DNA of 64,000 nucleotides from a virus. The stretch spans positions 41,388 through 105,387 of IMG/VR virus record IMGVR_UViG_3300035670_000075; one strand, 5' to 3'. Made by a program: the position numbers and the translations under genes. Shown one piece after another: positions 21,850 to 64,000 of the stretch (positions within the stretch are counted from its first letter, which is position 1; every line of letters begins with the position of its first letter). Under the pieces are notes generated by a model. That model was not told the origin of the DNA. It did no database searches and was given only the letters and a program-made list of their open reading frames with translations.

Positions 21850-21920
21850 AATATTTCTACTGGAGTCTAGGTTGCAATGGATACCATTCTTGTGTTGTGC
21901 ATCTTTATTTGTGGAACGGT

Positions 21921-21944: not shown

Positions 21945-21950
21945 GTTATT

Positions 21951-22133
21951 ATGAATGAGAAAGAGTTGCTTGAGATAATCAACGCATACAAAAACGATAT
22001 TTTATCCAACGATGGAGATAAAGCAGATCGTTTTTTAATGATGCTTGCAAAAGAAGTTGAACGTCAAACACGCCATAAAGCAGTGAAAATTGCTTACGAT
22101 ATGGCAGAGAAAATTAGCGATCTGAACTCCTAA
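21951..22133 (+). CDS. Cassette-borne hypothetical protein
   Basis: Starts just after GTTAGGG; stop TAA lies in the TCCTAAC box. Confidence 0.7.
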   Translation: MNEKELLEIINAYKNDILSNDGDKADRFLMMLAKEVERQTRHKAVKIAYDMAEKISDLNS

Positions 22134-22226
22134 CGCCGAGCTAAGCCTACCGGTGCTGCCGGTCAACTTGAACCAAAACCGAAAAATCTCGGCGGCACCG
22201 GGTCGGCCTTGAGCGATAAGTTATGG
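22128..22226 (-). mobile_element. attC site
   Basis: Minus: CCATAAC-5-GCTCAAGG-CCGA...stem...GCTTAGC-TCGGC-GTTAGGA. Confidence 0.85.
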
Positions 22227-22420
22227 CAGATATTACAATGTGCATCAATCAAGCATGTGATATGCGTGAAGACTGCTATAGAGCAAAAGCGACACCTGCT
22301 GTTTTCCAAAGTTTGTGTTTTTTTGCTCCGATAAACGGTAATTGCGAGAATTATATTGAGTATAAGCAGCACACTAAAAAAGCAAAAAATACTGGTATTT
22401 GTAGCCATAACGCTTTATAG
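22223..22420 (+). CDS. Cassette-borne small Cys-rich phage protein
   Basis: MADITMC....C.....CYR; cassette ends GTTATGGC / GCCATAAC are complementary. Confidence 0.7.
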   Translation: MADITMCINQACDMREDCYRAKATPAVFQSLCFFAPINGNCENYIEYKQHTKKAKNTGICSHNAL

Positions 22421-30712: not shown

Positions 30713-31126
30713 ATGACACAAAAACTCACTCTCGGTGATGTAACCGTACCTAAAGACTGGATGCTGACAACAGACAAGAAATGCCTATCAAGTGGTCTGT
30801 CAGCATATTACTCAGCAATGAGCCACTTGTACGATGCTGAAAATGATGACAACAAGGAAAGAAGCCAATACAAGTACGCGATGGCATTGTCGAGCTTTAG
30901 CCGCTGCTTTGGTTATCTATCAAGATTCGAGGTGAACGTCATACCTGAAGAGCTTGATGCCAGCGACGAAAACCCGTTTTCTTATCTTAAAGTTGGCGAA
31001 ATGAAAACATTATGCGAACAATTTGATGCTGTGCTGTCAACGTACATTGCACCGGCATCGAAAGCGGTAATGCGCAAAAAATCCACAACCCAAAAAGGAA
31101 AGCACAATGCAAAGACCGGAAATTGA
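30713..31126 (+). CDS. Hypothetical protein
   Basis: Fills operon between dut and nrdJ. Confidence 0.55.
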   Translation: MTQKLTLGDVTVPKDWMLTTDKKCLSSGLSAYYSAMSHLYDAENDDNKERSQYKYAMALSSFSRCFGYLSRFEVNVIPEELDASDENPFSYLKVGEMKTLCEQFDAVLSTYIAPASKAVMRKKSTTQKGKHNAKTGN

Positions 31127-33755
31127 TTTCCAAAACACTCATGCTACGGCGGTAAAAGTCCTTGAGCGCCGTTACTTGAAAAAAGATGCCGACGGCAAGC
31201 CGGTAGAGAAACCTGAGGATATGTTCTGGCGTGTGGCGCAGAATATCGCACAGGCTGAATCAAGCTTTGAAAGCATCGAACAGTGGGCTGATACATTCTA
31301 CAAAATGATGGTACGCTGCGAATTTATGCCAAATTCACCGACTTTGATGAATGCCGGGCGCGACCTGCAACAACTGTCAGCCTGCTTCGTCCTGCCGGTT
31401 GGCGATTCGATGGAAGAAATCTTTGAAACACTGAAGCACACCGCGCTTATCCATAAGTCAGGCGGCGGCACCGGGTTTTCCTTTACGCGCCTGCGCCCGA
31501 AGAATGACCGCGTGCAATCTACCCACGGCGTATCCAGCGGCCCGGTATCGTTCATGAAGATTTTTGACGCCGCCACCGAGCACGTCAAGCAGGGCGGCAC
31601 GCGGCGCGGCGCGAACATGGGTATTTTGCGTGTTGACCACCCGGATATTTTGGAGTTCGTCGAATGCAAAGCCAATGGCGGCATTCAGAATTTCAATATT
31701 TCCGTCGCCATTACCGATAAATTCATGACCGCGATTGATAACGGCGGTGAATACGCACTGATCAATCCCCGCGACGGTAGCGAGCATAGCAAACTGAACG
31801 CCCGCGAAGTGTTCGGCAAAATCATCGACTTGGCGTGGAAAACCGGCGACCCTGGCTTGGTGTTCATCGACCGCATCAATGCCGCCGCGCCGACTCCGGC
31901 GCACGGCTTCATTGAAGCCACCAATCCGTGCGTGACTGGCGATACGCTGGTGATGACCGTTGATGGCGCGGTAACGGTGCGCTCTATCGTCGGCAAGCAG
32001 GTTACGCTACTGGTCAACGGGGACGAGCACCGCACTACGCAAATCGGGTTCTATGAAACTGGGGTAAAGAAGGTTTTTCGACTCGCTCTGGAAGACGGCA
32101 AGACGGTTAAGCTGACCGAGAACCACATGGTTATGGTGTACCGCGCTAACAAGCAGTTGTGGGTGGAAGCCAAAGACATCAAGACTGGCGATAAAGTCCG
32201 CGTACACGACCACGAAGAAGGCAAACTGCGCTACTCGCGCTTCCTCAGTTTGATCCCATGCGGTGAGGAAATGGTGTACGACGTACAGGTTCCTGGCGTC
32301 AACGCATTCGATGCCAACGGCATTTACGTCCACAACTGCGGTGAGTTGCCGCTGCAACCCAACGACGCTTGTACACTCGGCAGCATCAATGTCGCCAAGT
32401 TTGTTGACGAGAATGGTGATATTGATTGGGTACAGTTGAAAATCTGCGTGCAACACTCAGTACGCTTTCTCGATAACGTGCTGGACATGAACCACTACCC
32501 GCTGCCGCAAATCGCCGACATGACCCGTGGCAACCGCAAAATTGGCTTGGGCGTGATGGGCTTCGCTGACCTGCTGATTGAGATGGGCATTCCCTACGAC
32601 AGCAAAGAAGCCGTCAAAGTAGCTCACAACGTTATGGGCTGCATCAATGACACCGCTGACGCCTACAGCCGCGTACTCGGCGCTGAGCGTGGCGAGTATC
32701 CGTTCTGCGAAAAACCTGAGCACCGAGGTCGCCGCAATGCCACTGTCACCACCATCGCGCCGACGGGTACGATTTCCATGATTGCGGGGTGCTCCAGTGG
32801 TATTGAGCCGCTGTTCGCGCTTGCTTACGTCAAAAATGTGATGGACAACACGCCGCTTGTCGAAACTAATGCGGCATTTGAAGCCACAGCAAAAGCATTT
32901 GGTTTCTATAGCGACGAGTTGATGCGCAAGGTCGCCGAACATGGTGGTGTTCATGATATGGACGAAGTGCCGGAAGATGTGCGCAAGGTATTTGTGACTT
33001 CTCATGACATCGTTCCGCATTGGCACGTTGCCATTCAAGCGGCGTTTCAAGCGCATACCGAAAACAGCGTGTCGAAAACCATCAACTTAGCCAACAGTGC
33101 CACCAGAACTGACGTGCGCGAAGCGTATGAAATGGCGTGGAAAACTGGATGCAAAGGCATCACCATTTACCGTGACGGCTGCAAGGATACGCAAGTGCTG
33201 TACACTGGCACCAAAGACCCGAACAAGAAGCCTGAAGCGGTTGCCGGTACACCGGAAGTGACGGCGCACATCCATCCACGCAAGCGTCCTGGTGTTTTGT
33301 CTGGTGAAACACAAAAAGTCGGTACAGGTTGCGGTAGCCTGTATGTAACGGTCAACCAGGAAGAAGGTCAGCCAGTGGAAGTGTTTGCGCAAATGGGCAA
33401 AAGTGGTGGTTGCGCCACTGCACAAACACAGGCGATTACCCGCCTGGCGTCAATCGCGCTGCGTGCCGGTGTTGACAGCAAGGAAATCGCGGAACAGTTG
33501 ACAGGCATTCGTTGCCCTGCGCCGCAGTGGGGTGTTGGCGGCATGATTCTGTCTTGCCCTGATGGTATCGGCAAGGTGTTGTCTGGTTTAAGTTTGACCG
33601 CAGAGTTGCCTATGGGTGACAAAGCTGATAAACTGGTTAACAACAGTCTGAGCGGTGACATTGTTGGCATGTGTCCAGATTGCGGTCATGTGCTGGAGTT
33701 CGTCGAAGGCTGTTCGGTGTGCAAGTCGTGCGGGTTTTCTAAGTGCGGCGGGTAA
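31107..33755 (+). CDS. nrdJ: Class II (B12-dependent) ribonucleotide reductase with intein; C-terminal TSCPD-like domain and Zn ribbon
   Basis: PNSPTLMNAG, QLSACF, GGTRRGANM, ATNP|CGE, TIAPTGTIS, ILSCPD, CPDC..CKSCGFSKC. Confidence 0.95.
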   Translation: MQRPEIDFQNTHATAVKVLERRYLKKDADGKPVEKPEDMFWRVAQNIAQAESSFESIEQWADTFYKMMVRCEFMPNSPTLMNAGRDLQQLSACFVLPVGDSMEEIFETLKHTALIHKSGGGTGFSFTRLRPKNDRVQSTHGVSSGPVSFMKIFDAATEHVKQGGTRRGANMGILRVDHPDILEFVECKANGGIQNFNISVAITDKFMTAIDNGGEYALINPRDGSEHSKLNAREVFGKIIDLAWKTGDPGLVFIDRINAAAPTPAHGFIEATNPCVTGDTLVMTVDGAVTVRSIVGKQVTLLVNGDEHRTTQIGFYETGVKKVFRLALEDGKTVKLTENHMVMVYRANKQLWVEAKDIKTGDKVRVHDHEEGKLRYSRFLSLIPCGEEMVYDVQVPGVNAFDANGIYVHNCGELPLQPNDACTLGSINVAKFVDENGDIDWVQLKICVQHSVRFLDNVLDMNHYPLPQIADMTRGNRKIGLGVMGFADLLIEMGIPYDSKEAVKVAHNVMGCINDTADAYSRVLGAERGEYPFCEKPEHRGRRNATVTTIAPTGTISMIAGCSSGIEPLFALAYVKNVMDNTPLVETNAAFEATAKAFGFYSDELMRKVAEHGGVHDMDEVPEDVRKVFVTSHDIVPHWHVAIQAAFQAHTENSVSKTINLANSATRTDVREAYEMAWKTGCKGITIYRDGCKDTQVLYTGTKDPNKKPEAVAGTPEVTAHIHPRKRPGVLSGETQKVGTGCGSLYVTVNQEEGQPVEVFAQMGKSGGCATAQTQAITRLASIALRAGVDSKEIAEQLTGIRCPAPQWGVGGMILSCPDGIGKVLSGLSLTAELPMGDKADKLVNNSLSGDIVGMCPDCGHVLEFVEGCSVCKSCGFSKCGG
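31929..32336 (+). mobile_element. Mini-intein (136 aa, no homing endonuclease)
   Basis: Starts CVTGDT, block B LTENH, ends VYDVQV...IYVHN followed by Cys. Confidence 0.93.
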
Positions 33756-39477: not shown

Positions 39478-39936
39478 ATTTGGATGACATGACCATAAGA
39501 TGAATCAGTAACAGAAATTCTTGAATATCGCTCACCGTGGAAAACAAAGCGAGCGGTAAAAAAAAAAGGCAAGTGGCTAAGCCGTCATGAGAAGCGCCCG
39601 CCGAGCGCTTGAAATTGCCACATCGGTACGAAGCATCACTGGCTCCAATAGGCAAAGGCGTCTTGAAATGCCGGTGTGTTGCGGTTCGATTCCGTGACTG
39701 TGCTTTTTTTATAGCTATAAGAAGTCAGCAAAATGCATCTCTATTACTGTGGACGTAAAAAATGGCGCGGTTATATGAATCGCGTAACTGAAGCTAGTAT
39801 GCTTGATGCTTTACCATTCGGGAAATTAATTGCGCGGGTAAAAAAGCATCAGGTTTATTTTGTATGTCGTGATGTTTCAAGAAGTCAGCAGGCAATTAAA
39901 TTGAAAAGATTTTGGCGGGCTTCGCGCAGTGAATAA

Positions 39937-40034
39937 AGATAACGCCCGAACTCAGGCGACCATTGCCGCCTATGAGCTTTAATTAACCAATTTAAACCGG
40001 CGGCAATGGGTCGGCCTTGACCGCCAAGTTAGGC
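39937..40034 (-). mobile_element. attC site
   Basis: Minus: GCCTAAC-5-GGTCAAGG-CCGA-CCCATTGCCGCC...GGCGGCAATGG...CCTGAGT-6-GTTATCT. Confidence 0.85.
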
Positions 40035-40053
40035 TTTTGCCTTTAGGATACAT

Positions 40054-40299
40054 ATGAACACAGACGATATAATGAATGAATCTGAGAAGCTTACAGAGGA
40101 ACTTGTAAAATATCTAGCAAAACGTAAAACAAACCGCGCAGTTGCGATCACGTCATTAGTAGATTGCTGCGTTTTTATCGCTACCGAGTCGAAAGATGAA
40201 AAAGTCATTTTCACAATACTTGATATGATTCATAAAAGAGTAGACTCAATTGCCAATGAGCTTTTTGCAGAGCGTAGCATATGGAAAGTTAAAGCCTAA
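40054..40299 (+). CDS. Cassette-borne hypothetical protein
   Basis: Cassette ends GTTAGGCTTT / AAAGCCTAAC are 10-bp complementary; stop lies in TAAC. Confidence 0.75.
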   Translation: MNTDDIMNESEKLTEELVKYLAKRKTNRAVAITSLVDCCVFIATESKDEKVIFTILDMIHKRVDSIANELFAERSIWKVKA

Positions 40300-40349
40300 C
40301 TTGTAGATAGGCAGAATGTTGAATAACTGTTATTTAACATTCTGCCTAT
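40294..40349 (-). mobile_element. attI-like site with 21-bp-arm palindrome
   Basis: Minus: ...CATTCTGCCTATCTACAAG|TTAGGC; palindrome 40307-40349; near-identical copy at 45816-45868. Confidence 0.65.
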
Positions 40350-41667: not shown

Positions 41668-43173
41668 ATGGGCGGCAGCATAATCACCAAAACCATGTTC
41701 ATGTCAGGCGTGCAATGCACGCTAAAACTATGGCACGAACAGCATGCCGACAGCAGAGAACCGCCGTCAGAAAGCACGCTGCGCGCAATGGCAGAAGGCA
41801 ATGAAGTCGGCGCACTGGCGCGTGCGCAATATCCTGGCGGCGTATTTATCGCCGAAACAAACTACGAAGCCGCTGCCGCTGCGACGCGCGAGGCATACGA
41901 AAACGGCGCGTCGGTAATCTACGAAGCGGCATTTTTGGTAGATGATATGTACGCCAAAGTCGATATTTTGCATATCGACGAGGAAGGCAACGCAACCATC
42001 ATTGAAGTAAAAGCCACTACGTCGGTAAAACCTGAGCATCTTCCAGACGTAGGCTTCCAATGGCACGTTGTCGTAGCGTCTGGTATCAACGTGACTAACG
42101 TATACCTGATGATTCTCGACGACACCAAGCTGTGTCCGTCTGATAACTACTTCAAACTGGAAGATGTCGCAGAGAAAGCGCAAATCTGGAAAGACGCTGC
42201 ACAGTCAAAATCGGTTGCGCTGATGAAAACAGCCAATCAAGCAACACAGCCAACACAACAAATAGGATCACACTGCAACACGCCGTATGACTGCCAATTC
42301 ACCGATAAATGTTGGGCGCATGTACCTGATGAGAATAGCATATTTACAATCCCATTCCTGCGTGGGAGAAAAAAACAAGACCTGATCGACGCAGGAATAT
42401 TCCATATCAACCACTTGCCAACTGAATTTGAGGCAACTGCGGCGCAACAGGTGTGGATTGATGTGGCAACCAGTGGCAAGCCAATCGTCAACATTGCCGG
42501 AATCAAAGACGAGCTATCGCAACTGGAATACCCGCTGGCTCACTTCGATTTTGAGACAATGGCATACGCCATCCCAAGATTTGCCGGGATGAAGCCGTAT
42601 CAGCAGTTCCCATTCCAATTTTCACTGCATGTGCAGAGAAAAAATGGGAAAATAACCCATCAAGAATATTTACATGTCACTCGCGACGACCCGCGAAAAC
42701 ACATTGCAGAAGCCATGCTTGCTTCTATTCCAGACGGCGGACATATCATCACCTGGAACAAACATTTCGAGTCTGGACGCATCATGGAAATGGCAGCGTG
42801 GCTGGAGTCAACCGGAGAAATCTCAAAAGCCAACCAGATGCGCAAGTTCAACGACCGCCTGTGGGACTTGGCTGAGATATTCCGCATCAAAGGCACTGGC
42901 GAAGTGCTGTGGCTGCACCCCGACATGCAGGGGCGCTACAGTATCAAATATGTTCTTCCAGTGATTGCGCCGCACTTGAGCTACAAGGGCATGAAAGTCG
43001 CCAAGGGCGATGAAGCAATGAACGCCTGGGCAAAGCTGATCATGCTTCCAGACGGCAGCGCCGAGAAGCAGGAATTGACATCGGCATTGCTTGCATACTG
43101 CAAGCAGGACACATACGCGATGGTGGTTATTTTGGATTATCTGTGGAGTCTTGTATGGAAAAGCGGTTTGTAG
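41668..43173 (+). CDS. DUF2779 protein (RecB/Cas4-like nuclease + RNase H-like domain)
   Basis: K..F..G.QC...LW, VDIL...IEVKA, C..PY.C.F...CW, DFET, FQFSLH, SIKYVLP, YC..DT. Confidence 0.88.
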   Translation: MGGSIITKTMFMSGVQCTLKLWHEQHADSREPPSESTLRAMAEGNEVGALARAQYPGGVFIAETNYEAAAAATREAYENGASVIYEAAFLVDDMYAKVDILHIDEEGNATIIEVKATTSVKPEHLPDVGFQWHVVVASGINVTNVYLMILDDTKLCPSDNYFKLEDVAEKAQIWKDAAQSKSVALMKTANQATQPTQQIGSHCNTPYDCQFTDKCWAHVPDENSIFTIPFLRGRKKQDLIDAGIFHINHLPTEFEATAAQQVWIDVATSGKPIVNIAGIKDELSQLEYPLAHFDFETMAYAIPRFAGMKPYQQFPFQFSLHVQRKNGKITHQEYLHVTRDDPRKHIAEAMLASIPDGGHIITWNKHFESGRIMEMAAWLESTGEISKANQMRKFNDRLWDLAEIFRIKGTGEVLWLHPDMQGRYSIKYVLPVIAPHLSYKGMKVAKGDEAMNAWAKLIMLPDGSAEKQELTSALLAYCKQDTYAMVVILDYLWSLVWKSGL

Positions 43174-43397
43174 TAACTAAAGGCAACGGGACATTCAAAG
43201 CTGGCGATAGAATAGTCTTTTACAAAAATGGGGACATAGGTTGCGCACAGGCTGGTGGATGGGTTGATAATAAGGACGCAGAAGAAGCTACAAAAGGTAT
43301 GGAATACAGACCTGATGTTGAGTTTGCGAAAAAGAAGATTAAACGCCTATCGGAAGAGATTGCAGAGTTGCGCAGAGAATATGGTGTTACTGAATAA
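43143..43397 (+). CDS. Phage hypothetical protein
   Basis: Overlaps the end of the DUF2779 gene. Confidence 0.55.
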   Translation: MESCMEKRFVVTKGNGTFKAGDRIVFYKNGDIGCAQAGGWVDNKDAEEATKGMEYRPDVEFAKKKIKRLSEEIAELRREYGVTE

Positions 43398-43611
43398 TGT
43401 TATTTTCCTTTGGAGTGAAAAACATGCTTACGACTGTTAGGGCTAGAGTTTGCAGAGTTGGTGAATGGGCAGTGTTCCGCACAAAACAGCATGGATTGGT
43501 CATGCAAATGGGCGACGGTTATATGAAAGCGCCTCTGCAAAAAAAGAATATGTTTAAGTTAAATATCAGCGGTAATACGCCATGCCTGGTAAGGTCGCGA
43601 TGCGATATTAA

Positions 43612-43708
43612 AACTAACGCCAAAGCTCAGGCGACAACCGCCGTCTGTGAACCATAAACAACCAAAAAGCCTAACGGCAGCGGGTCGCGCTCAAGTGTGA
43701 AGTTAGGC
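43612..43708 (-). mobile_element. attC site (more degenerate, array-distal)
   Basis: Plus: AACTAAC-GCCAAA-GCTCAGG-CGAC...GTCG...GTGAA-GTTAGGC. Confidence 0.7.
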
Positions 43709-43722
43709 TGTGGAGATAAGCC

Positions 43723-44010
43723 ATGACTGAGATTGTAAAAGGAATGAAAATTACGCCTTGGGGTACTAAAGATAACCCTCTTATGCAGGGAATGTTTGTT
43801 GGTTGCGTACAATGGGCGATTGGTGATAAAGATATAGTTGAATCGTTCAAGAAAGATACAGGTAATGACCTGAACTCGTTAAGATTTTCAGGTATTGATG
43901 GAATGATTGATGAAGCTACAGGAAGGGCTGGAGAGATGTTTGCAGCCTTTGCGGATTATGTGGCTGAAAATATCTGGGGTGATGAAAACTCGGATATTGA
44001 TGCAGCCTAA
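43723..44010 (+). CDS. Cassette-borne hypothetical protein
   Basis: GTTAGGCTG / CAGCCTAAC ends; RBS GGAG; stop in TAAC. Confidence 0.75.
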   Translation: MTEIVKGMKITPWGTKDNPLMQGMFVGCVQWAIGDKDIVESFKKDTGNDLNSLRFSGIDGMIDEATGRAGEMFAAFADYVAENIWGDENSDIDAA

Positions 44011-44103
44011 CGCCAGAATTAACCCGACATGCGCCGCCAATTAACTAAAACCAAGTCATAAAAGCCCGACGGCGCATGGTCGGACTTGATGGCAAAGTTA
44101 TAC
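44005..44103 (-). mobile_element. attC site
   Basis: Plus: GCCTAAC...CCGACATGCGCCG...CGGCGCATGGTCGG...GCAAA-GTTATAC. Confidence 0.85.
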
Positions 44104-44112
44104 GGAGACTAT

Positions 44113-44418
44113 ATGAGCAAGCAACAATGGGGACATGGATACCACCGTGGTTTTAATAAAGGATACGCAAAGGCGAAGCGCGAAGAGGAAACAAAGCGCG
44201 CTTTCAAAGAAAATAAACATGCTCATTGGGTTGAGATTACTCATTACGGAAGCGAAGGCGTTGAGCCAAAAGACCGCATGTTATGCGGTGATGTTGGTGG
44301 TAGCTGTATAAGCGGAAGCGGTGAAAGCATATGTGCTGGCTATCGCGGTGAAAATGAAACAGGTACACATGTGATATGCGCTGAAAAACCAAGAGCGTAT
44401 AAGCATGATTCCGTATAA
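44113..44418 (+). CDS. Cassette-borne hypothetical protein
   Basis: GTTATACGGA / TCCGTATAAC ends; stop in TAAC. Confidence 0.75.
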   Translation: MSKQQWGHGYHRGFNKGYAKAKREEETKRAFKENKHAHWVEITHYGSEGVEPKDRMLCGDVGGSCISGSGESICAGYRGENETGTHVICAEKPRAYKHDSV

Positions 44419-44511
44419 CGCCAGAACTCAGGCGACCATTGCCGCCTGCAAACTTAAACTTTAGCCAGTTCACTCCGGCGGCAATGGGTCGCCTGGAGTG
44501 ACAAGTTATAT
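44413..44511 (-). mobile_element. attC site
   Basis: Arms nearly identical to the 39937-40034 site. Confidence 0.88.
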
Positions 44512-44524
44512 TGAGGTAACAAAT

Positions 44525-44794
44525 ATGATTAAAAATCTCAGAAATGATTTTATTGAACTGATGTCAGAGTCATATGTAAAAATGCCAAGGCACGACAGAA
44601 TATGTCTGCTCCATGCAATGGACGCACCTGACAATAACCCAGCGACAGGGCTGCCATTTCAAACAGTAGGCGAACTGTTTGGTTCAATGAGTGACGAATC
44701 TTTGGCAACAGTCTATCGCGATATGCGTGATAACGAATTATTAGCAAGTCGGGACAGCTACAGAAAATATGAAGAAGCCATTAAAAATTTGTGA
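44525..44794 (+). CDS. Cassette-borne hypothetical protein
   Basis: GTTATATT / AATATAAC ends; RBS GAGG. Confidence 0.75.
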   Translation: MIKNLRNDFIELMSESYVKMPRHDRICLLHAMDAPDNNPATGLPFQTVGELFGSMSDESLATVYRDMRDNELLASRDSYRKYEEAIKNL

Positions 44795-44898
44795 ATATAA
44801 CGCCAAAGCTCACGCGACCAATACCGCCCGCGATGAGCTTTAATCCGGCACTAAATTTTGTGGGCGGTATTGGGTCGCCGTGGAGCGTAAAGTTAGGT
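44795..44898 (-). mobile_element. attC site
   Basis: Plus: ATATAAC...CGACCAATACCGCCC...GGGCGGTATTGGGTCG...GTAAA-GTTAGGT. Confidence 0.88.
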
Positions 44899-44903
44899 GC
44901 TTA

Positions 44904-45059
44904 ATGAATAAGAATATGAGAGCGGTAGCAAGGAAATCATGCTGGATGGCTAATGGTTTTTTCGGTTCAAACCGCAAAGAAGCCGTTCAAAAAGCAATAG
45001 AAAACGGAGTTAAACCCGAAAACATAAAAGCTAAAAAAGTATATCCATCTGGCAAATGA
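44904..45059 (+). CDS. Cassette-borne 51-aa basic protein (below ORF-track cutoff)
   Basis: MNKNMRAVARKSCWMANGFFG...YPSGK*; GTTAGGTG / CACCTAAC ends. Confidence 0.6.
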   Translation: MNKNMRAVARKSCWMANGFFGSNRKEAVQKAIENGVKPENIKAKKVYPSGK

Positions 45060-45066
45060 ATTTTAC

Positions 45067-45164
45067 ACCTAACGCCTGAGCTAAGCCGCGCTGCGCCGCG
45101 ATGAACTTTATATTAACCTGCTCAAGCCCGACGGCGCAGCGTCGGCTTGAGCGCAAAGTTAGAG
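45067..45164 (-). mobile_element. attC site (textbook layout)
   Basis: Minus: CTCTAAC-TTTGC-GCTCAAGC-CGACGCTGCGCCG...CGGCGCAGCGCG-GCTTAGC-TCAGGC-GTTAGGT. Confidence 0.92.
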
Positions 45165-45241
45165 GTTGACATGGATAGAATCAAGGTAACAAAAGATTGC
45201 ATTAAAGTATATGAGCAGCAAAAAGGTTCAAAAGAATCTTC

Positions 45242-45811
45242 TTACTTATCAAGAAGAAGACTTCTAATTTCTTTGAAATCGTCATCATCAAGAAAGAAAA
45301 ACTGACATGATTTTGATTTCTTTTTATTTGACATAATCGTTAATCCTTTATATATGCTTAACGATTGTGTCTTTTTGGCATCTGCACTTGATAATATGCT
45401 AACTTTATTAAATCCGTTTTTTTCAAAAAAATGTTCTTTACCAATTGAAGATATGAAACATATAGGAGAGAATCTTTCTTTCACTGTGCTAAGCACAAGA
45501 CTACCAATACCTTCCATTCTGTATTTTTCTTCAACATATATGCGATGTAGATAGAATTTATCTCCAGGAAAATGAATAACCATAGCATAAGATATTGGGT
45601 TTCCTTCATAAAGGTAAGCTATGATTTTCAAATTACCAACACGAAATAACTCTTTAAATATATTTGATATATAATTTAAAGCATTATCATAATTTATGTT
45701 TTTATCAATTGATAGCCCAATAATCATTGGAGTTATAAGAGCATCCTGAAGCATTATCTCCGATTCTATTTTTATTATCTGGTTTATATCTGATTGACTA
45801 AGCTCACTCAT
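45242..45811 (-). CDS. GNAT-family acetyltransferase (AT-rich cassette)
   Basis: YLHRIYVEEKYRMEGIGSLVL, FFEKNGF; begins GTTAGAGGTAAATATG. Confidence 0.85.
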   Translation of the reverse strand: MSELSQSDINQIIKIESEIMLQDALITPMIIGLSIDKNINYDNALNYISNIFKELFRVGNLKIIAYLYEGNPISYAMVIHFPGDKFYLHRIYVEEKYRMEGIGSLVLSTVKERFSPICFISSIGKEHFFEKNGFNKVSILSSADAKKTQSLSIYKGLTIMSNKKKSKSCQFFFLDDDDFKEIRSLLLDK

Positions 45812-45815
45812 ATTT

Positions 45816-45868
45816 ACCTCTAACTTGTAACTAGGCAGAATGTTAAATAACTGTTATTCAACATTCTG
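45816..45868 (-). mobile_element. attI-like site with 16-bp-arm palindrome
   Basis: Minus: ...CATTCTGCCTAGTTACAAG|TTAGAGGT; palindrome 45836-45868. Confidence 0.65.
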
Positions 45869-45880
45869 TATAATACAACC

Positions 45881-46207
45881 ATGTCACAATCATTCCTATC
45901 AGCCAACGCCAGGGCGCAGCGCAGGCACAAAGCCAAACGCGCTGCGCTAGGCTTCTCTCAGCTTAATTTCTGGATTCACGAAAAAGACCGTGACATTCTG
46001 GCTTCGGCACTGAAAAAATACAACGCTGACAAGCTTGAAACGCTGGAGCGGCGCATGAGCTTAATCATTCGTGTCGCCAACGACGAAACTGAAATAACAC
46101 TGCACGAAGCATCAGAAATACAACAAAAGATGTTTCCAGAAAATAAACCGCTACCAATAAAAAAAACATGGTGGCAGAAAACCAAAGCATGGCTTGGCGT
46201 TAACTAA
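45881..46207 (+). CDS. Small RHH-like protein with amphipathic C-terminus
   Basis: RAQRRHKAKRAALGFSQLNFWIH; KKTWWQKTKAWLG. Confidence 0.6.
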   Translation: MSQSFLSANARAQRRHKAKRAALGFSQLNFWIHEKDRDILASALKKYNADKLETLERRMSLIIRVANDETEITLHEASEIQQKMFPENKPLPIKKTWWQKTKAWLGVN

Positions 46208-46286: not shown

Positions 46287-46310
46287 GTATTATTTTTATA
46301 GTTGACACAG

Positions 46311-47387
46311 ATGGAAACTGAAGATTTAGAAGAAAATCATGAATCGGATACGCGCGAAAGACTTCTCAAGAAATACGCCGCAAAATCCATACGGAAAAAG
46401 ACGCGGCAAGACTACGAATCAAGACTTAGGCTTTATCAAGCGTCAGGTAGAAAACTTCCAGCAACTGACGTTGAAATCGTAGAATACATCGAATCGGCAA
46501 AAGTCATGTCGCGTAAGAAAAACGGCGAATACATTACCAAAGACAGCTTGCTTGCTGTGTCATCAGTCCAATCAATAGTTGCTGCTTTGTCGTGGTGGCA
46601 TCAAGAAAATAACCACCAAGACCACACAAATAGCGCGCTGGTTAAAAAAGCCATTGCAGCAATCAAGCGCGAACGCGCAAAACCGCAAGCGCAAGCGCGA
46701 GCAATAAAAACTGAAGAAATTGCAGCAATCACTGAAACGCTACTCGAACTACAAACAACCCAAAATGCCGCAGACAATCTCCGCGCAATCCGCGATCTGG
46801 CTTTTATCCTCGCGCTGTTTTACACCGGGTGCAGAGAAAGCGAAATCCGTCACCTCAGAGTTGATGATCTGGAGTTTACAGATGACGGTCTAATCGTAAA
46901 AATCAGAAAGTCAAAAACAGACGACGGAACTGGAAGAAACACGCCAATCCCATACCGCGATGCTAACGGACAAAAAATACTCGCGGCATACGCGATCTCT
47001 GATTGGATTGAAAAGGCTGGAATAAAGTCTGGCTTCGTATTCAGAACAGTAGACCAATACGCTGTCGTCGGTCGTGGGAAAAAGCCGCTAGACTATGGGT
47101 TTTCTTCACGGACACTACTCAAATACGCAGAGATGTCAGGCGTATCAATAGACGGAATCAGCACACACTCATTCAGAGCCGGGTGCGCAACAGCACTAAA
47201 TTTAAGCGGCGCAGGTATTGCCGAGATAGCGCAGCACTTAGGTCATCGCTCAACGGCGTCAACGATGAAATACTTACGCGCCGACGCATCAACCAGACTT
47301 AAAGACGCACCAACACGGAAAATTGCGCAGCCAAAGAAAACTTTTACGCAGATAGTTTTCACGTTTATTGCACGTTTATTTTCGTGA
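46311..47387 (+). CDS. Cre/TnpS-like tyrosine recombinase
   Basis: RD.A......TGCRESE, KSKTD, HSFRAG.AT, GH.S...MKY; no IntI-specific insertion. Confidence 0.9.
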   Translation: METEDLEENHESDTRERLLKKYAAKSIRKKTRQDYESRLRLYQASGRKLPATDVEIVEYIESAKVMSRKKNGEYITKDSLLAVSSVQSIVAALSWWHQENNHQDHTNSALVKKAIAAIKRERAKPQAQARAIKTEEIAAITETLLELQTTQNAADNLRAIRDLAFILALFYTGCRESEIRHLRVDDLEFTDDGLIVKIRKSKTDDGTGRNTPIPYRDANGQKILAAYAISDWIEKAGIKSGFVFRTVDQYAVVGRGKKPLDYGFSSRTLLKYAEMSGVSIDGISTHSFRAGCATALNLSGAGIAEIAQHLGHRSTASTMKYLRADASTRLKDAPTRKIAQPKKTFTQIVFTFIARLFS

Positions 47388-47531: not shown

Positions 47532-48668
47532 TCACGATTTTTGCACGTCGAGTGATTCCAGCATGGCTTTGAATTTGTCTCCGGCGTTGGGTGCTGCGGT
47601 TGGCATCCAGCGCGCGTAGAATTTGCGGATCATTGCCCAGTCAGAGTGTCCCATCACGCTTGCGATCCATGCCGGGTTTTCGCCAGCGGTGAGCATCATG
47701 CAGGCGAATGTGTGGCGGGTTTGATAGGGGTAGCGGTAGCGTACTCCGGCGCGCTTCAGAGTTGGACGCCAGACGAATTCCCGTATAGTTTTGTCGTTGC
47801 TGTACGGTTTGTTGGTTTTGGGGTCGAAGAAGATTTGTGCGGCGTGGTGGTAGGTGTGTGATTTTTGTGCAATCACGGCTTCTAACGCGGGGTCGAACAA
47901 GGGGACTTCGCGGCGGCCTGATTTGGTTTTTGGTTCTTTGGTGATTTTGCGTGATTGACTGAGGCGGATGAATACGCGGCGGTTGGGTTCGTCAAAGTCT
48001 TCCCACCGTAGCGCTAGGAGTTCGCCTGTGCGTAGTCCGGTGAAGAAGGCGAAGCGGATGAGGTTGCGGTGTTGTTCGTACTCGCAGGCGGCGAGGATTT
48101 GTTGAATCTCTTGCGGGGTGAATGGATCGGGTTCTTGCGTGGTGGTTTTGAGGTTTTTGATTTTGTCGGCTGGATTGCGTTCAATGGTGCCGTCAATGTA
48201 GGCGTCTTCGAGCATTCCGCGCAGCGGGATCATGATGTTGTTGATGCGCTTGTTGCTGATGACCAGTCCGGCGATCCAGTCTTTGATGTGGGCTGTTTTG
48301 AGGTCTTTGAGCTTGATATGACCGAACTGAGTTTTCAGGTGGTGATCAATCGCGCTTTGGTAATCGCGGATCGTGGTGTGTGATTTGCCGTGGCTGTTGT
48401 TTCGCAGCCAGGCGTCCAGCGCCTCGGCAATGGTTATTGCGGTAGGCGCGTAGTCGTCGAATAGGGTTGCGCGTTTTGAGTTGGGGAAATGTTTGCGGTA
48501 GCTGAATGTGCCTACTGCTATTTCATGCTCGATGGCAGCGGCAAGACGCTCGCCGTGTTTTCTATTGGTCAGCGTGTCTTTCAGGCGCAGGCTCTCGCGG
48601 CATTGCACGCCGTTGAGGACGAACCCGATCCACAGCCTGTCGCCGTCTCTTGTGTAGATTTTCGCCAT
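47532..48668 (-). CDS. Phage integrase with N-terminal arm-binding domain
   Basis: F...G..CRESL, F.Y..HFPNS, TGLR.GE, KT..G.R, YQTRHTFA, MGH, FY..W. Confidence 0.95.
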   Translation of the reverse strand: MAKIYTRDGDRLWIGFVLNGVQCRESLRLKDTLTNRKHGERLAAAIEHEIAVGTFSYRKHFPNSKRATLFDDYAPTAITIAEALDAWLRNNSHGKSHTTIRDYQSAIDHHLKTQFGHIKLKDLKTAHIKDWIAGLVISNKRINNIMIPLRGMLEDAYIDGTIERNPADKIKNLKTTTQEPDPFTPQEIQQILAACEYEQHRNLIRFAFFTGLRTGELLALRWEDFDEPNRRVFIRLSQSRKITKEPKTKSGRREVPLFDPALEAVIAQKSHTYHHAAQIFFDPKTNKPYSNDKTIREFVWRPTLKRAGVRYRYPYQTRHTFACMMLTAGENPAWIASVMGHSDWAMIRKFYARWMPTAAPNAGDKFKAMLESLDVQKS

Positions 48669-48852
48669 GTGCGCTGGTATTTCCCCACATCCAGTTACGA
48701 ATCGCATCTAAATCATACACGATTCGTTTGCCGTCAGGGGCTTTTTTCCAATGCACGCCTTCCAGCCAATGCCCAAGTCGGCGATGAGACTCTTGGGATT
48801 TTTGGCTGTAGCCTGTTTCGCGCGCCAATACGTCACCGAGTACCGGCGTCAT
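48562..48852 (-). CDS. Excisionase-like protein
   Basis: ETGYS...G.WLEGVHWKKAPDG.RI.YDL.AI..W; directly upstream of int. Confidence 0.8.
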   Translation of the reverse strand: MTPVLGDVLARETGYSQKSQESHRRLGHWLEGVHWKKAPDGKRIVYDLDAIRNWMWGNTSAHGENLHKRRRQAVDRVRPQRRAMPREPAPERHADQ

Positions 48853-49061: not shown

Positions 49062-49462
49062 ACCATCTCCACATAACATTCGCCGCTGGCGGGCGGTTTT
49101 GCGTAGGTGACGCGGATTTTCCCCGCCGCTTCAAGTTGCGCCAGCGCGCCACACACGTCGGTATCTTTCCATGAGTTATAGCTTGCTACCAACTCGTCGT
49201 AAGTAGCTTTGCCTCTGGAGATGAAACACATCAAGCGCCGTTGCAGTTCGGCGAATTCCTGCCTGGTAATTCGCTGCGGACGCTCAGCTTTGAGTCCGTA
49301 GACAATGGCTGCTTTATTTTCTTTCACCCAACAGAGAAATTGTTCTGACGGCGGATTATCCACACTGTAATCAATCCGTATGCCGTCGTCTCCAATCAGG
49401 ACGAGGGTGAATCCCTTGTCACGGATTTGTTTCAATGCCGCTGCAATTGAACCTGACATCAC
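49058..49462 (-). CDS. TubC-N-like domain protein
   Basis: L......GFTL....D.IRI.....PP......VKENKAAIV. Confidence 0.55.
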   Translation of the reverse strand: MMSGSIAAALKQIRDKGFTLVLIGDDGIRIDYSVDNPPSEQFLCWVKENKAAIVYGLKAERPQRITRQEFAELQRRLMCFISRGKATYDELVASYNSWKDTDVCGALAQLEAAGKIRVTYAKPPASGECYVEMV

Positions 49463-51642
49463 TCACCTCCATGCAGCAAATAACCCAACATCGTCGTCCG
49501 CATCGCTGGTCGGTTGTTTTTCACCGCCCTCTCGATCAGCGTCGTGTCGCCAACGCAATAGCAGCGAACTTTTGGGCGCGTAACCCCGGTGTAGAACAGT
49601 TGCCGGTATAGCATGTTGGTGTGTGAACGACTCAGCACAAAAATCCCGGTGTTGTACTCTCCGCCCTGGACTTTGTGGATGGTTTTGCACCAGGCGTGAG
49701 TTAACTGGTCAAACTTGTCGCTACCGTAGTTAGACACGCGACCATCTTCCCACTGCACTTGGATTTGCTGGTAGTGCCGTCCGTCGTCGCCCTGCACGGC
49801 ACCGGCTGAGACGATAATGCCAGTATCGCCGTTTAGCGCGTCGATCTCCGGATCATTCTTGAGATTCATTACTTTATCGCCAACGCTCATCAGTGACCCA
49901 TTGGCAAAAACGCCGGAATCGCTTGGGTTGATCGCGTTTTTAATAAGTTTGTTGATGGCATGAACGCCGCACTCGCCATCGTACATCGGCGCAAGCACTT
50001 GGATTTGGCTGATGTCGATGCCGCTTGCCAGCGCCTTCTGCACAATCGCCAGCACGTAGCGCGCGGCGTTGCTATCAATGGGCTGATGCAGCATGAAAAA
50101 ATCGCCGCCTACTTGCGGCATCTCGCCGCGTTTGATTGCCGCCGCGTTGACGGCGATCATCGAATCTTCGGCTTGGCGGTGGATGGTTTCGAGTCGCGTT
50201 GTCGGTATACCTGAATCAATCAGGTCTTTGAGCACATTGCCTGCGCCTACCGATGGCAGTTGATCAACGTCGCCAACCAGAACAATTCGGCACTCGCTCG
50301 GTACAACATCGAGCATGTCAGCACACAGTTTGGCATCGATCATTGATGCCTCGTCAATACAGATTACGTCTGCGCCACCAAGTTCTTCTAGTAGCGCCTC
50401 GGTGTAAATGCGCCGATGGATGGTCGTTGCCTCGCGGCGGGTACTCTCGGTCATGCGCAACGCGGCCTTGCCAGTCGGAGCAGCAAGGATGATGTTTGCG
50501 CCAGGCATTGCCTGTTCAATGGCGTTGAGCGCGGCATTGGTTGTATAGGTTTTGCCCACACCAGGCCCGCCAGTCAGTATGCATATCCGGTGATTCAGCA
50601 CCATTTCGACGCCACGGCGTTGATCGTCGTCGAGGTCGGCGGGGATGTCGGCACGCAGAACTTCAGGAGTCGCCGCTAAGCGGCGCTTGATGTCGTCGGC
50701 AATGCGGGTTTCCGCTGCGTACAGAGACTCTAGCGCGAATAAAACCTGCCCGCCAATATCTACCCGCACCACATGCTCTAAAAACGCCTTAGAAGCCGTT
50801 TTAGGCGCTATTTTGGTTTTGTCGATACAAAGCACCTTCTTGGCGCAGTAATCAATCAGTTCGATTTCCGTTGCGGCTGTATGCCCATTTTGAGCAAACA
50901 GCGACAAAGCGTATTCCAGCCCAGCAATGATGCGATGCTCGCTTTCTTTCTCGATCCCGCAGTCCAGCGCCACTTCGTCAGCCTTGGCAAAGCCGATGCC
51001 GTAAACCTGTGTCAACAGGTATGGGTTGGCTTTAATCTCGGCAAAGGTAAATGCCGCACGTTCATCGGTTTTATCCAGTAGCTCCAAGCATTTGTGCGAG
51101 TCTTTTCCGCCCATACCGTGCGCTTGCAGGAATACCAGCAGCTTGTCTGCATCATCTTCGCTGGTGACAGCACGGTGGATGTCATCAACCATCTGCTGCG
51201 TCACGCCGTCAACTTCCAGTAAACGCTCTGGATGACTTTTCGCTATAGGGAATATCCCGCGCCCGAATTTAGCGGCAATGGCATTGGCTTTCACCTCACC
51301 AATTCCGGCGATGTTGCGTTTCAGCCAACCGATAATGCCAGCGTTGTCGAGCGGGGTTTTCTTGCGCACGGAGAAGGCTTTGAACTGACGCCCAAATTTA
51401 TCGCTATTGACCCAGTTGCCAAGCGCAGTGATTTTGTCACCTTCTTCAAGGTCTTGGGGCAGGTTTGAACAGGCGACTTTGTGCTTGCTGGTCAGGGCGA
51501 TGACGCCCCAGGTGTCTTTGCGGGTAAGGATTTTCTGTACAGTCCCAAGCAGTGTTTCTTGTTCTGGTGCAGGGGATTTTCTTGCGTTGACTGGTGTTTT
51601 TTCTTGTGCGACTGCTGGCATGATGCCTCCGTTTTGCTTCAA
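49459..51642 (-). CDS. recD2: RecD2-like SF1B helicase
   Basis: G.W....FGRQF, NPY.L..V.GIGF..AD, TGGPGVGKT, APTGKAA, DEASM, GDVDQLPSVG.G, TIHKVQG.EY. Confidence 0.95.
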   Translation of the reverse strand: MKQNGGIMPAVAQEKTPVNARKSPAPEQETLLGTVQKILTRKDTWGVIALTSKHKVACSNLPQDLEEGDKITALGNWVNSDKFGRQFKAFSVRKKTPLDNAGIIGWLKRNIAGIGEVKANAIAAKFGRGIFPIAKSHPERLLEVDGVTQQMVDDIHRAVTSEDDADKLLVFLQAHGMGGKDSHKCLELLDKTDERAAFTFAEIKANPYLLTQVYGIGFAKADEVALDCGIEKESEHRIIAGLEYALSLFAQNGHTAATEIELIDYCAKKVLCIDKTKIAPKTASKAFLEHVVRVDIGGQVLFALESLYAAETRIADDIKRRLAATPEVLRADIPADLDDDQRRGVEMVLNHRICILTGGPGVGKTYTTNAALNAIEQAMPGANIILAAPTGKAALRMTESTRREATTIHRRIYTEALLEELGGADVICIDEASMIDAKLCADMLDVVPSECRIVLVGDVDQLPSVGAGNVLKDLIDSGIPTTRLETIHRQAEDSMIAVNAAAIKRGEMPQVGGDFFMLHQPIDSNAARYVLAIVQKALASGIDISQIQVLAPMYDGECGVHAINKLIKNAINPSDSGVFANGSLMSVGDKVMNLKNDPEIDALNGDTGIIVSAGAVQGDDGRHYQQIQVQWEDGRVSNYGSDKFDQLTHAWCKTIHKVQGGEYNTGIFVLSRSHTNMLYRQLFYTGVTRPKVRCYCVGDTTLIERAVKNNRPAMRTTMLGYLLHGGE

Positions 51643-52006: not shown

Positions 52007-53857
52007 CTATTCAACATAGCAGGATAAAACTCTGTTTACATTATCGGCTTGGTTATTTTCATTGTCAACTAACCCAAAGCTGTAAGCTATAGGGGATATT
52101 GAATCGCCGTTTTCAGTAATCCTGACACCAAAAATCTTACTCCTGCCGCGAACTCTATCAAAGCACACGCCTTTCAATCCGCGCACATCGCGTAACAATG
52201 TGACAAGTTTGCGGCTAAAGTTCTGGACGTTGTATCGCTTGATTTCAAACTCTGACTCATTGCTTTCGTGCGCCCATTGCAGGAAACTTGGCAGCAAGTG
52301 CGTATCATAAAATTCGTAAGTAACACTGCGGTCATCCGCCGACATCAGCTTTTTAACACCAACTTGAACGCCGTCACCGTATTCTGTTCTATTCCAGTCG
52401 TTGTCAGGATACCCTTTCGGCGGCTCTACATACGCCAGCTTGTCATGCGCCCACCGCGCTAAAATGTTGCCGGACAATAGGCTTTCCATTTCATCCTGTT
52501 TAATTTCGTCTGATTTATCGTTGGCAGCATCGGTCAAAATATCCATTGCTTGTTGCTCGGATATTTTCAATACCTTGTTAATCAGCCCAGGTAACTCAGG
52601 TCTTAAGATGGGCTTGAGGTCTTTTTGGGTTTCTGAAACGTGATGAAAATACAGCACAATTAGGCGTCGCAACAAGCCAACATCGTCGGTATTTAGCACG
52701 CTATTTCCGGCGCAGGCCATAATTCCTTTGTGCCTAATCATTGCGTCGCGTGCCAGTGAGTTGATGTGCTTCAACTTGAACGGCATATCCTCGCCTGAAG
52801 ACAATAGTTTGAGCATTGGCAATGATCCAGCAACCTTATCGTAATCGGCTTCGTCAATGATGATTGCCCGCATATCCTTGAAATTAGTCGCCTCATGCTT
52901 ATCATTCTCAAGCCCTCTTAGCGTTGTACCCATATAATTACCAACGCCAACGAGGTCTTTGAAAATACCCATCACCGTACCCTTGCCTGCTCTTGGCGGG
53001 CCTGCCATGTACAATATTTTCTGATAGCGGTTCAAGTCACCAGACAGCATTAAGCGCATAAACGCCAAAAGAATCATTACCTTGCCTGGGACTGGACGCT
53101 TCTTCAAATCGGCAGTTGCTTCACTTAAAAATTTATCAATTGTTGGGCATGTCGCGTCCGGATCGTAATCAAACCCTAATTGCCAAGTGAAAAAATAATT
53201 CGGGTCATGCGGGCCGAGCTTGCCTGTGCTAAGACTGTAAACACCATTGGCAAATGGCACTAAGTCAGGATCGCTATTCCATTTATCACGCCATAACTTA
53301 CCAGCAAGAAATCTGGCTACGCCGTCAGGCGTTGACGCGCCATAACCGCTGCCGTAACCAGGGTTTGATGCGCAGAATTCCTTTATTTTTTCATCTACCA
53401 AATTAAACACCATAGGCTGTTTAATTTTTCCAACGACTTCCCATACACCGCTACCGTTGTAGCGCATAAACGTGTCAGTCACCGGATCAACGGCAATCTC
53501 ATTATCACACCTGTCGGCGATGGCTTCCGCGATTTGGCTTTGGCTATACGTCAAACTAGCCTGAAATTCTAACTGTTGCTGGCTATTGGTATCATCGTTA
53601 CCTAATTCATGCCGCACCTTTTTCAGAAAAGCATTGAGGTCGCGCGCCGTCACGCCATTGAGCTTAGCCGCCATCTTAGGGGTCAGCGTTTTTACGTCAA
53701 GGTCATCAATGGTGCTGTCAGCCGCCATTTCAGCGATAATCTGACGCGCAAAAGCGAGATCGTCTTGTTGTAATTCCTCATCTACCATCACCTGATAGCG
53801 ACTTTTGCGCTGAGACTTGGTTTCCAGTGATGCGATACTTAATGTTCCATTACTCAT
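52007..53857 (-). CDS. P4/D5-type SF3 replicative helicase
   Basis: D5_N (FANGV..L.TG.L.PHDP), GPPRAGKGT, IIDE, RRL. Confidence 0.9.
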   Translation of the reverse strand: MSNGTLSIASLETKSQRKSRYQVMVDEELQQDDLAFARQIIAEMAADSTIDDLDVKTLTPKMAAKLNGVTARDLNAFLKKVRHELGNDDTNSQQQLEFQASLTYSQSQIAEAIADRCDNEIAVDPVTDTFMRYNGSGVWEVVGKIKQPMVFNLVDEKIKEFCASNPGYGSGYGASTPDGVARFLAGKLWRDKWNSDPDLVPFANGVYSLSTGKLGPHDPNYFFTWQLGFDYDPDATCPTIDKFLSEATADLKKRPVPGKVMILLAFMRLMLSGDLNRYQKILYMAGPPRAGKGTVMGIFKDLVGVGNYMGTTLRGLENDKHEATNFKDMRAIIIDEADYDKVAGSLPMLKLLSSGEDMPFKLKHINSLARDAMIRHKGIMACAGNSVLNTDDVGLLRRLIVLYFHHVSETQKDLKPILRPELPGLINKVLKISEQQAMDILTDAANDKSDEIKQDEMESLLSGNILARWAHDKLAYVEPPKGYPDNDWNRTEYGDGVQVGVKKLMSADDRSVTYEFYDTHLLPSFLQWAHESNESEFEIKRYNVQNFSRKLVTLLRDVRGLKGVCFDRVRGRSKIFGVRITENGDSISPIAYSFGLVDNENNQADNVNRVLSCYVE

Positions 53858-56441: not shown

Positions 56442-56512
56442 TCTCGTTCCCACGCCACTATTCTCGTTCCCACGCGCCGAGTGGGAACGAGAAGTGATCG
56501 GCGCGTGGGAAC
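56442..56512. repeat. REP-like TCGTTCCCAC/GTGGGAACGA repeat cluster
   Basis: Nested inverted copies between convergent genes. Confidence 0.75.
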
Positions 56513-56517
56513 TAGAT

Positions 56518-56979
56518 TTATCGTGGCATCGCGCCCTGCACCGCCTTAATACCATCCAGCGCCGAAGCAATATCCGCTTGCAAATGCTGGATCGCCTCCA
56601 GCAACGCGCCTTTGGCTGACTTCGGCAGTTTTTCGCCAAGCGCCGTTGCCGAGCCGCTCAGATTACCAAGGTCGTCGCTCAACTCGCCCAGCGTCAACTT
56701 AAATTCTGTATTGGCGTTGCAATACGCCAAATAGAATTTAACATGCGTTGACACCTCGCCCTGGATATACGGATTCATCAATATGAATCCCGCAATGTTG
56801 ATGTAGTAGCCGTCATTGCCCGGCGTAATGGCGACGTGCTGTAGGTCTTGCGGCGACAGTTTTGCCAGCAGCTTGCCGACCGAGGCATTGACGTTGCCGA
56901 GGTCGCGCTTGAATTCGCACGCAATGGTGCGGGTGTGGGTGACGGCAACGCCGTCTTTTAGTTCAACTAACTCTCGCAT
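56518..56979 (-). CDS. Rha-family regulator-like protein
   Basis: LVELKDGVAVT....IA.EF.R...NV...V.KL. Confidence 0.7.
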   Translation of the reverse strand: MRELVELKDGVAVTHTRTIACEFKRDLGNVNASVGKLLAKLSPQDLQHVAITPGNDGYYINIAGFILMNPYIQGEVSTHVKFYLAYCNANTEFKLTLGELSDDLGNLSGSATALGEKLPKSAKGALLEAIQHLQADIASALDGIKAVQGAMPR

Positions 56980-63863: not shown

Positions 63864-63912
63864 TCACCGCAGGCGCGGTGATTCCGCATTAAATTTTTGC
63901 GCCGCGTAAAGC

Positions 63913-63938
63913 GGTCGGACTGAAGCGCCAAGTTAGGT
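63913..63938 (-). mobile_element. Truncated attC half, distal end of a probable fourth array
   Basis: Minus: ACCTAAC-TTGGC-GCTTCAGT-CCGAC; followed on plus by GGAGG and ATG 63958. Confidence 0.6.
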
Positions 63939-64000
63939 TTGGCGCTTGGAGGTTATTATGAGGGTAAGGACGGCTGGAAAGCCACAGTTTGCCGGGGATA

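Follow-up and report, generated by a model that had tools for sequence, protein, structure and literature searches.

Positions 43612-45868 of the analysed window (64,000 nt, bases 41388-105387 of the 105,387-bp IMG/VR virus record IMGVR_UViG_3300035670_000075) hold what are very probably five genuine integron cassettes in a 105-kb phage, inserted by an integron integrase (IntI) of the host acting in trans; the probability of this reading is put at about 0.8. The record, with a CheckV completeness estimate of 95%, derives from an uncultured tailed phage of a subsurface sample, which is probably temperate. Five attC sites are clustered within 1.6 kb and no intI is present in the record (best score 20 bits with TIGR02249 across all 105 kb, against a cut-off of 265), and the array is therefore assigned as a cluster of attC sites lacking integron integrases (CALIN). 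Phage genes border the array on both sides, and so it is not a host flank. Phage-borne CALINs are rare and of a kind published in 2023; the features that stand out here are the reversed orientation of most genes, the presence of cassettes at more than one locus and a docking element found in two copies. The attC sites, with covariance-model scores, and the cassette genes are as follows, in window coordinates.

43610-43710, minus strand (top strand): attC1, 90.6 bits, repeat family D1
43723-44010, plus strand: cassette E gene, 95 amino acids (aa; ORF95), Shine-Dalgarno (SD) sequence GGAG, phrog_5692 (E 3e-5)
44003-44105, minus strand: attC2, 97 bits
44113-44418, plus strand: cassette D gene, 101 aa from an ATG with an SD, Cys-rich, no family matched
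44411-44513, minus strand: attC3, 100.7 bits (just 34.8 bits when read on the plus strand)
44525-44794, plus strand: cassette C gene, open reading frame (ORF) of 89 aa
44793-44900, minus strand: attC4, 89 bits
44904-45059, plus strand: cassette B gene, ORF of 51 aa
45065-45166, minus strand: attC5, 94.9 bits
45242-45811, minus strand: cassette A gene, GNAT acetyltransferase of 189 aa, PF13508/PF00583, phrog_10454 (E 1.6e-22)
39935-40036, minus strand: attC of a second locus, 83.8 bits (E 6e-23), outside the training set of the model
22126-22228, minus strand: attC of a third locus, 75.6 bits (E 2e-20), also outside the training set; phrog_20586 match at this locus (E 5e-6)

A repeat search groups the five array sites into one family, with starts at 43613, 44006, 44414, 44796 and 45068 (spacing 393/408/382/272), and the limits set by a covariance model, trained on the same five sites as read on the window minus strand, agree with it and give attC lengths of 101-108 nt. 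The mean column identity of the five sites is 70%. The consensus fold consists of a 5-bp R box (TAAC/GTTA), an unpaired spacer of 5-6 nt, a stem of 21 bp broken by two bulges, and a loop some 34 nt long. When the sites of the second and third loci are included, TAAC and GTTA are invariant (7/7 sites), the core boxes RYYYAAC ... GTTRRRY are present, 88.5% of cells are paired, and compensatory changes on both sides occur in 11 of the 26 pairs. This level of pairing was matched by 0/500 shuffles, and slid controls were 28-51% paired. The two additional sites were found by the model itself, which returned none from the first 41 kb of the record.

The model also recognises attC sites of established integrons: in two class 1 integrons from the plasmid collection, that of blaGES-5 scores 38 bits (E 6e-10) and that of blaBEL-1 scores 27 bits. 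In a wider search, genome contigs were scanned for the 3' arm motif and the matches passed to the model; since about 280 chance motif matches are expected by our own arithmetic, model-confirmed loci alone were used. Strong sites (46-92 bits) were found in metagenome-assembled genomes labelled Thiotrichales, Chromatiales, Thiomargarita and Beggiatoa, in one sulfidic-cave genome labelled Dichelobacter, and in five other IMG/VR records. IntI scores above the curated cut-off in three of the five bacterial genomes with this attC family that were tested (288-434 bits), and in two of those the IntI gene shares a contig with attC in the usual divergent geometry. Because the sites and the attCs of real integrons are recognised by one model, they are placed in an attC family of real integrons, and the family suggests a host group, probably sulfur-oxidising Gammaproteobacteria of the Thiotrichales/Chromatiales type, which encode IntI. 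An Rfam search gave no attC match, its lone hit being a spurious mir-31 on a 33-bp palindrome beside the array.

The ends of the cassettes point the same way. Cassette E occupies 43618-44010, D 44011-44418, C 44419-44800, B 44801-45072 and A 45073-45823. In each, the first bases are complementary to the R'' box of the cassette's attC; the array has five such pairs, of 8-10 nt, and other loci add three. The array pairs are GTTAGGCTG at 43702 with CAGCCTAAC at 44003 (cassette E), GTTATACGGA at 44097 with TCCGTATAAC at 44410 (D), GTTATATT at 44505 with AATATAAC at 44794 (C), GTTAGGTG at 44892 with CACCTAAC at 45066 (B), and GTTAGAGGT at 45158 with ACCTCTAAC at 45816 (A). Such complementarity is expected of cassettes that were once circles, and supports that origin here. 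The GC content of the cassettes is 29-45% (cassette E 41%, cassette A 29%), a foreign-looking composition beside that of the flanks (48%) and of the whole genome (49%). Fold, covariation, cross-recognition of class 1 sites and end complementarity together support the interpretation of the five array sites as probable true attC sites. They also bear out an earlier note on this DNA, which had placed five repeats at these positions, named all five end pairs and taken the units for once-circular cassettes; its observation that the window lacks intI holds as well, and extends to the whole record.

The polarity of the array was deduced from the model scores and the layout of the bulges. Each site scores 76-101 bits on the minus strand and 10-35 bits on the plus strand, and in class 1 loci the model matches the strand of the resistance genes, which is the canonical top strand. 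The two bulged bases are at the same places in 7/7 phage sites, the top-strand bulges being A and C. The site nearest in sequence to the aadA7 and blaGES-5 attCs is attC5, which has its extrahelical T and G on the plus strand and ends there with ...CAGCG[T]CGGCTT[G]AGC GCAAA GTTAGAGG; the bottom strand of the GES-5 attC ends with ...CAACG[T]CGGCTT[G]AAC GAATT GTTAGAC, and the aadA7 bottom strand in Table S3 of Qi et al. (PMC9892861) has the same layout as the attC5 plus strand. The plus strand of the window is therefore the recombinogenic bottom strand, from which it follows that an attC and the gene to its right make up one cassette, in the order attC-gene in plus coordinates, and hence that there are five sites for five genes, the GNAT cassette included. 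The earlier note had assumed the opposite polarity. Under the corrected one, the GNAT gene has an attC (attC5), which removes the difficulty of a last cassette with none, and the ORF at 43424-43657 is a phage gene and no cassette; the sequence at 45836-45868 that closed the interval of the note is the 33-bp palindrome and contains no attC.

In 4/5 cassettes the gene is thus on the bottom strand of its attC, co-directional with the flanking phage genes and opposite to the bacterial layout, and the GNAT acetyltransferase is the sole array gene in canonical orientation. The four plus-strand ORFs are regarded as genes because of their start signals (an ATG 11-20 nt after the GTT, with a scored SD in three) and, for ORF95, because of its phrog_5692 match. 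ORF95 matched only itself in a set of 5.8 billion proteins, and the Atlas gave weak leads alone, to viral hypothetical proteins with scores <0.9. The cassette genes are presumably phage accessory genes of unknown role. A putative 44-aa plus-strand ORF with an SD (45171-45305) begins 12 nt after attC5 and runs antisense over the last part of the GNAT gene (its 3' end), so that a potential plus-strand start lies just after the attC in all five cassettes.

The entry point of the array can be placed to the base, at 45823|45824, where the minus strand reads TACAAG|TTA, or more fully ...CATTCTGCCTAGTTACAAG|TTAGAGGTAAATATG, running into the GNAT start. Cassette A adjoins this point, and the distal end of the array is the R' box of attC1, G|TTAGTTTT, with the crossover at 43617|43618. 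The sequence at the entry point is a docking element that is present in two copies.

45824-45868, no strand assigned: docking element, CTTGTAACTAGG followed by the 33-bp palindrome (45836-45868), minus-strand junction ...CCTAGTTACAAG|TTAGAGG
40300-40346, no strand assigned: second copy of the docking element, CTTGTAGATAGG plus the palindrome

Joining the flanks reconstructs an empty site, ...AAAACTAA|CTTGTAACTAGG. With the cassettes removed, the phage ORF that begins at 43424 and now extends 12 codons into attC1 ends in KTNL-stop, directly followed by the 33-bp palindrome. The genome contains exactly two copies of the combination CTTGTA(NN)TAGG plus palindrome, the second of which carries a single cassette (39943-40299) joined at the same base. 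The far sides of the two occupied elements are also alike (ATTAAAACTAA|C and AATAAAGATAA|C). The likeness of the docking site to the attI1 core (GCCCTAAAACAAAG|TTAG) is weak, at 11/20 bases. The element may be a preferred attI-like target, or may reflect one old insertion followed by duplication.

Since no IntI is encoded by the phage, strand exchange at G|TT would have depended on an enzyme from outside it. The enzyme proposed is the IntI of the host cell, which would act in trans on the phage DNA during lysogeny, SOS induction or infection, with the phage site serving as a double-stranded target of the attI-like or attG type. All five array cassettes entered at the one point, 45823|45824, and by integron rules the docking-side cassette, the acetyltransferase with 29% GC, would be the newest. 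Phage CALIN sites have been recombined by IntI1 (PMC9892861), and IntI has been found to insert cassettes at 5'-GWT-3' sites of genomes outside integrons, termed attG (Loot et al., bioRxiv 10.1101/2022.09.11.507474).

Metagenome contigs give some indication of exchange at these points. The DNA of the phage was detected in subsurface and soil metagenomes, all from one study, and one run of that study has a contig with the whole array unchanged (42903-45946), probably the source of the record. In other contigs of the study the match to the window breaks off at an R box, at 45820, 45070 and 44100, and different sequence follows. In run X2 the divergence lies to the left of 45820 (...AACAGC|CTAACTTGTAAC), where the new sequence would be another cassette at the docking site; in run X3 it lies to the left of 45070; and in runs X1 and X2 it comes after 44100, where the letters behind GTTA are GGCTTTTAG and then an SD and an ATG come. 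Run X2 also has neighbouring phage genes in versions that are 93-97% identical. These contigs may point, weakly, to an exchange of cassettes at G|TT, and to that extent they favour the suggestion, made in the earlier note, that the phage shuffles its accessory genes as cassettes, with the amendment that the enzyme must be external to the phage. Contigs in runs X1 and X2 also diverge directly after 45869.

The array is unlikely to be part of a host chromosomal integron that was taken up in a single step, by imprecise prophage excision, by illegitimate recombination or as a multi-cassette circle, and has been static since. Prophages of Vibrio anguillarum do hold pieces of the host chromosomal integron (PMC9892861), and the five attCs are homogeneous, as in sedentary arrays. 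Both ends of the array, however, lie exactly at G|TT, and its removal restores a gene end and the docking element, which excludes illegitimate capture but leaves an IntI-inserted multi-cassette circle standing. One-step capture is also at odds with cassettes at three or four separate loci, with the other sequence found beside the docking element in contigs of the same study, and with the 29-45% spread of cassette GC.

Two tyrosine recombinase genes adjoin the array.

46302-47387: Cre-like tyrosine recombinase, 361 aa, matching Cre/Tre in the PDB (E 1e-6 over residues 84-327); phrog_1
47532-48707: phrog_1 integrase, tyrosine recombinase, 391 aa

The 391-aa protein is an ordinary phage integrase. 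That the phage has an integron-like system of its own, with the Cre-like recombinase as cassette integrase and the palindrome plus TACAAG|TTA as its attI, appears very improbable, although the gene lies beside the entry point and is divergent from the attC top strand, as is intI in bacterial integrons, and although the docking element is repeated and occupied in both copies. The predicted protein is Cre-like and not an IntI: no IntI structure is among its PDB matches, it scores 28 bits on TIGR02249 against the cut-off of 265, and PF00589 matches a relative that is 93% identical. A 108-aa gene separates the recombinase gene from the entry point. Distant relatives of the protein (29-37% identity) in a metagenome scan had no attC of this family nearby; in a 131-kb phage a homologue, 29% identical, is 68 kb away from attC; and neither the Cre-like protein nor an IntI is encoded by a complete 38-kb phage in which a methyltransferase cassette is reversed. 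The attC family, moreover, is common to IntI-bearing bacteria. No IntI was found in the five other viral records with the same attC family, two of which are complete with terminal repeats. Given the evidence on the Cre-like enzyme, and the 38-kb phage that lacks both it and IntI, the action of a host IntI in trans is retained as the explanation. A 93% identical copy of the Cre-like protein was seen on a 3.5-kb ENA contig (P0002), and the genes of the 361-aa and 391-aa recombinases are arranged tail to tail.

It is scarcely credible that the repeats are phage intergenic hairpins, such as terminators or repetitive extragenic palindrome (REP)-like elements, that merely resemble attC, for while they form strong hairpins between co-directional small genes, they are cross-recognised with class 1 attCs and with attCs near IntI genes, contain the canonical extrahelical bases and R box, and have complementary unit flanks, and the few terminator-like sites of the region include none spanning a whole attC hairpin.

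Several points nevertheless weigh against insertion by a host IntI. A tyrosine recombinase gene is situated beside the entry point, in the place and orientation of intI in bacterial integrons. Simple insertion in trans does not predict the reversed orientation of the genes. One duplication, in place of two independent insertions, could account for both occupied docking elements. Each variant junction in the metagenomes is a single short contig of which 30 letters were seen, and other elements with related attCs could be its source.

The reversed orientation extends beyond this phage, to another four to five viral contigs. Genes were assigned to the strand whose ORF starts just behind, or ends at, the site. 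Among viral sites the gene is on the bottom strand in 10, on the top strand in two and unclear in two, and with this phage excluded the counts are four, two and one. Bacterial sites of the same attC family have 17 genes on the top strand, three on the bottom and three unclear (top in 17/20 callable sites), and class 1 sites have it on the top strand in 3/3. The difference in gene strand between viral and bacterial sites gives p = 0.0002 by Fisher's exact test with all sites and p = 0.03 without this phage, the sites being non-independent and the gene calls crude. An independent reversed example is the complete 38-kb IMG/VR phage with terminal repeats (L168), in which a DNA methyltransferase cassette (phrog_799, E 3.7e-52; 938-1486, minus strand), likely a counter-defence gene, sits on the attC bottom strand between attCs of 109 and 60 nt. 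In the published phage H101 the bottom strand of attC1 is the gene strand, whereas the gene orientation of phage TJE1 is canonical, so that reversal in phages is frequent and not universal. No discussion of it was found in the searchable literature, and Qi et al. (PMC9892861) are silent on it. Cassette excision is orders of magnitude higher when the bottom strand of the attC lies on the lagging-strand template (PMC13108822); in this phage the GC skew tracks the gene strand and so gives no replication direction.

A broader proposal, advanced tentatively and with the odds against it, is that phages of several unrelated lineages keep a mirror-image pool of cassettes, with the gene on the recombinogenic strand, and use a borrowed host IntI, here with a dedicated attI-like dock. 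If true, it would mean a phage-side use of the integron system and not accidental capture, with accessory genes exchanged by way of the host integrase; reversal, if general, would mark phage cassettes as a selected or separately evolving population. Carriage by phages makes infection a route for cassettes between cells, and opens a ready-made system of gene exchange to phages. The present array is an unusually clean case: its five sites are homogeneous, its joints are exact and its empty site can be reconstructed, the same genome has further cassette loci, and the attC family points to a likely host group.

The array resembles the phage CALINs described by Qi, Rajabal, Ghaly, Tetu and Gillings (2023, Front Microbiol, PMC9892861) in having attC-bounded cassettes of small genes and no intI, and in cargo of unknown function or methyltransferases; as in their phage TJE1, it lies beside a palindrome with GTTRRRY-like motifs. 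It differs from them in that it has five homogeneous attCs in one array plus two or three further loci, where most published cases have 2-4 predicted sites, and in that its docking element is repeated and occupied twice. With sedentary chromosomal and class 1 integrons it shares the R''/R' boxes, the spacer, the L boxes, the extrahelical T and G, the variable loop and the cassette-end complementarity, and attC5 has long identical runs in common with the GES-5 and aadA7 sites; unlike them, it has no intI, no recognised attI and no Pc promoter, and its genes are on the bottom strand in 4/5 cassettes. Insertion at attG (bioRxiv 10.1101/2022.09.11.507474) likewise occurs at several non-integron places, with G|TT joints and the attC kept on one side, but two of the targets here are the same 45-bp element used at the same base, which resembles a favoured attI-like site more than it does a random GWT.

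Cre/loxP of phage P1 offers a further comparison, in that the 361-aa recombinase matches Cre (residues 84-327) and the 33-bp palindrome upstream of its operon can be read as 13+7+13; identity is low, however, and the cassette joints, with G|TT ends of the IntI type, fall 11 nt beyond the palindrome. The two 33-bp palindromes (45834-45868 and 40310-40346) are 5.5 kb apart, both with a central AACTGTT on the plus strand, and their single arm mismatch is swapped, so that one is nearly the reverse complement of the other. That at 45834-45868 is just upstream of the operon of the 108-aa ORF and the Cre-like recombinase. It is possible that the palindromes are lox-like sites on either side of a 5.5-kb segment with the array inside it. 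Scanning viral contigs for the docking palindrome and for one attC pattern returned no other record.

The second locus has one cassette (39943-40299) with an 81-aa plus-strand gene (40054-40299) and the end pair GTTAGGCTTT at 40028 and AAAGCCTAAC at 40291. The attC of this locus (39935-40036) and attC3 (44411-44513) share an identical run of 24 nt in the stem and R-proximal arm and differ in the other arm and the loop, which suggests gene conversion or homologous exchange between the loci. The third locus has a cassette at 22134-22410 with a 65-aa plus-strand gene (22223-22420), and a neighbouring cassette with a 60-aa gene (21951-22133) and a truncated attC arm at about 21905-21947. Its flank differs from the docking element and, by analogy, would fit the loose 5'-GWT-3' attG targets of IntI. 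There may be a fourth locus at the end of the window.

63895-63940, minus strand: possible attC arm of a fourth locus, by direct reading and with no covariance-model score, ending AAGTTAGG

At 63895-64000 an attC-like arm (…GGTCGGACTGAAGCGCCAAGTTAGG) is followed by an SD and an ATG and is cut by the contig end; the assembly break may lie inside a fourth cassette locus. A weak model hit at 56450-56531 was rejected as an attC, having no TAAC/GTTA ends, and is a separate hairpin made of CTCGTTCCCACGC repeats. The CTCGTTCCCACGC motif recurs at the very start of the contig (about 45-70), and is a repeated phage motif unrelated to attC.

Other phage genes of the window are:

19615-21120: head protease
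24297-25919: large terminase
31107-33755: ribonucleotide reductase
49459-51642: ExoV/Dda-type helicase
52007-53857: primase

The best identity of the large terminase to any isolated phage is <=37%, and a megablast of the array region against phages and plasmids gave no match. Relatives of a flanking 501-aa protein were sought in viral contigs and none was found. This protein (41668-43173), directly upstream of the array, resembles a RecB-like nuclease in its N-terminal part and the UU173 family in its C-terminal part (NCBIfam, below cut-offs).

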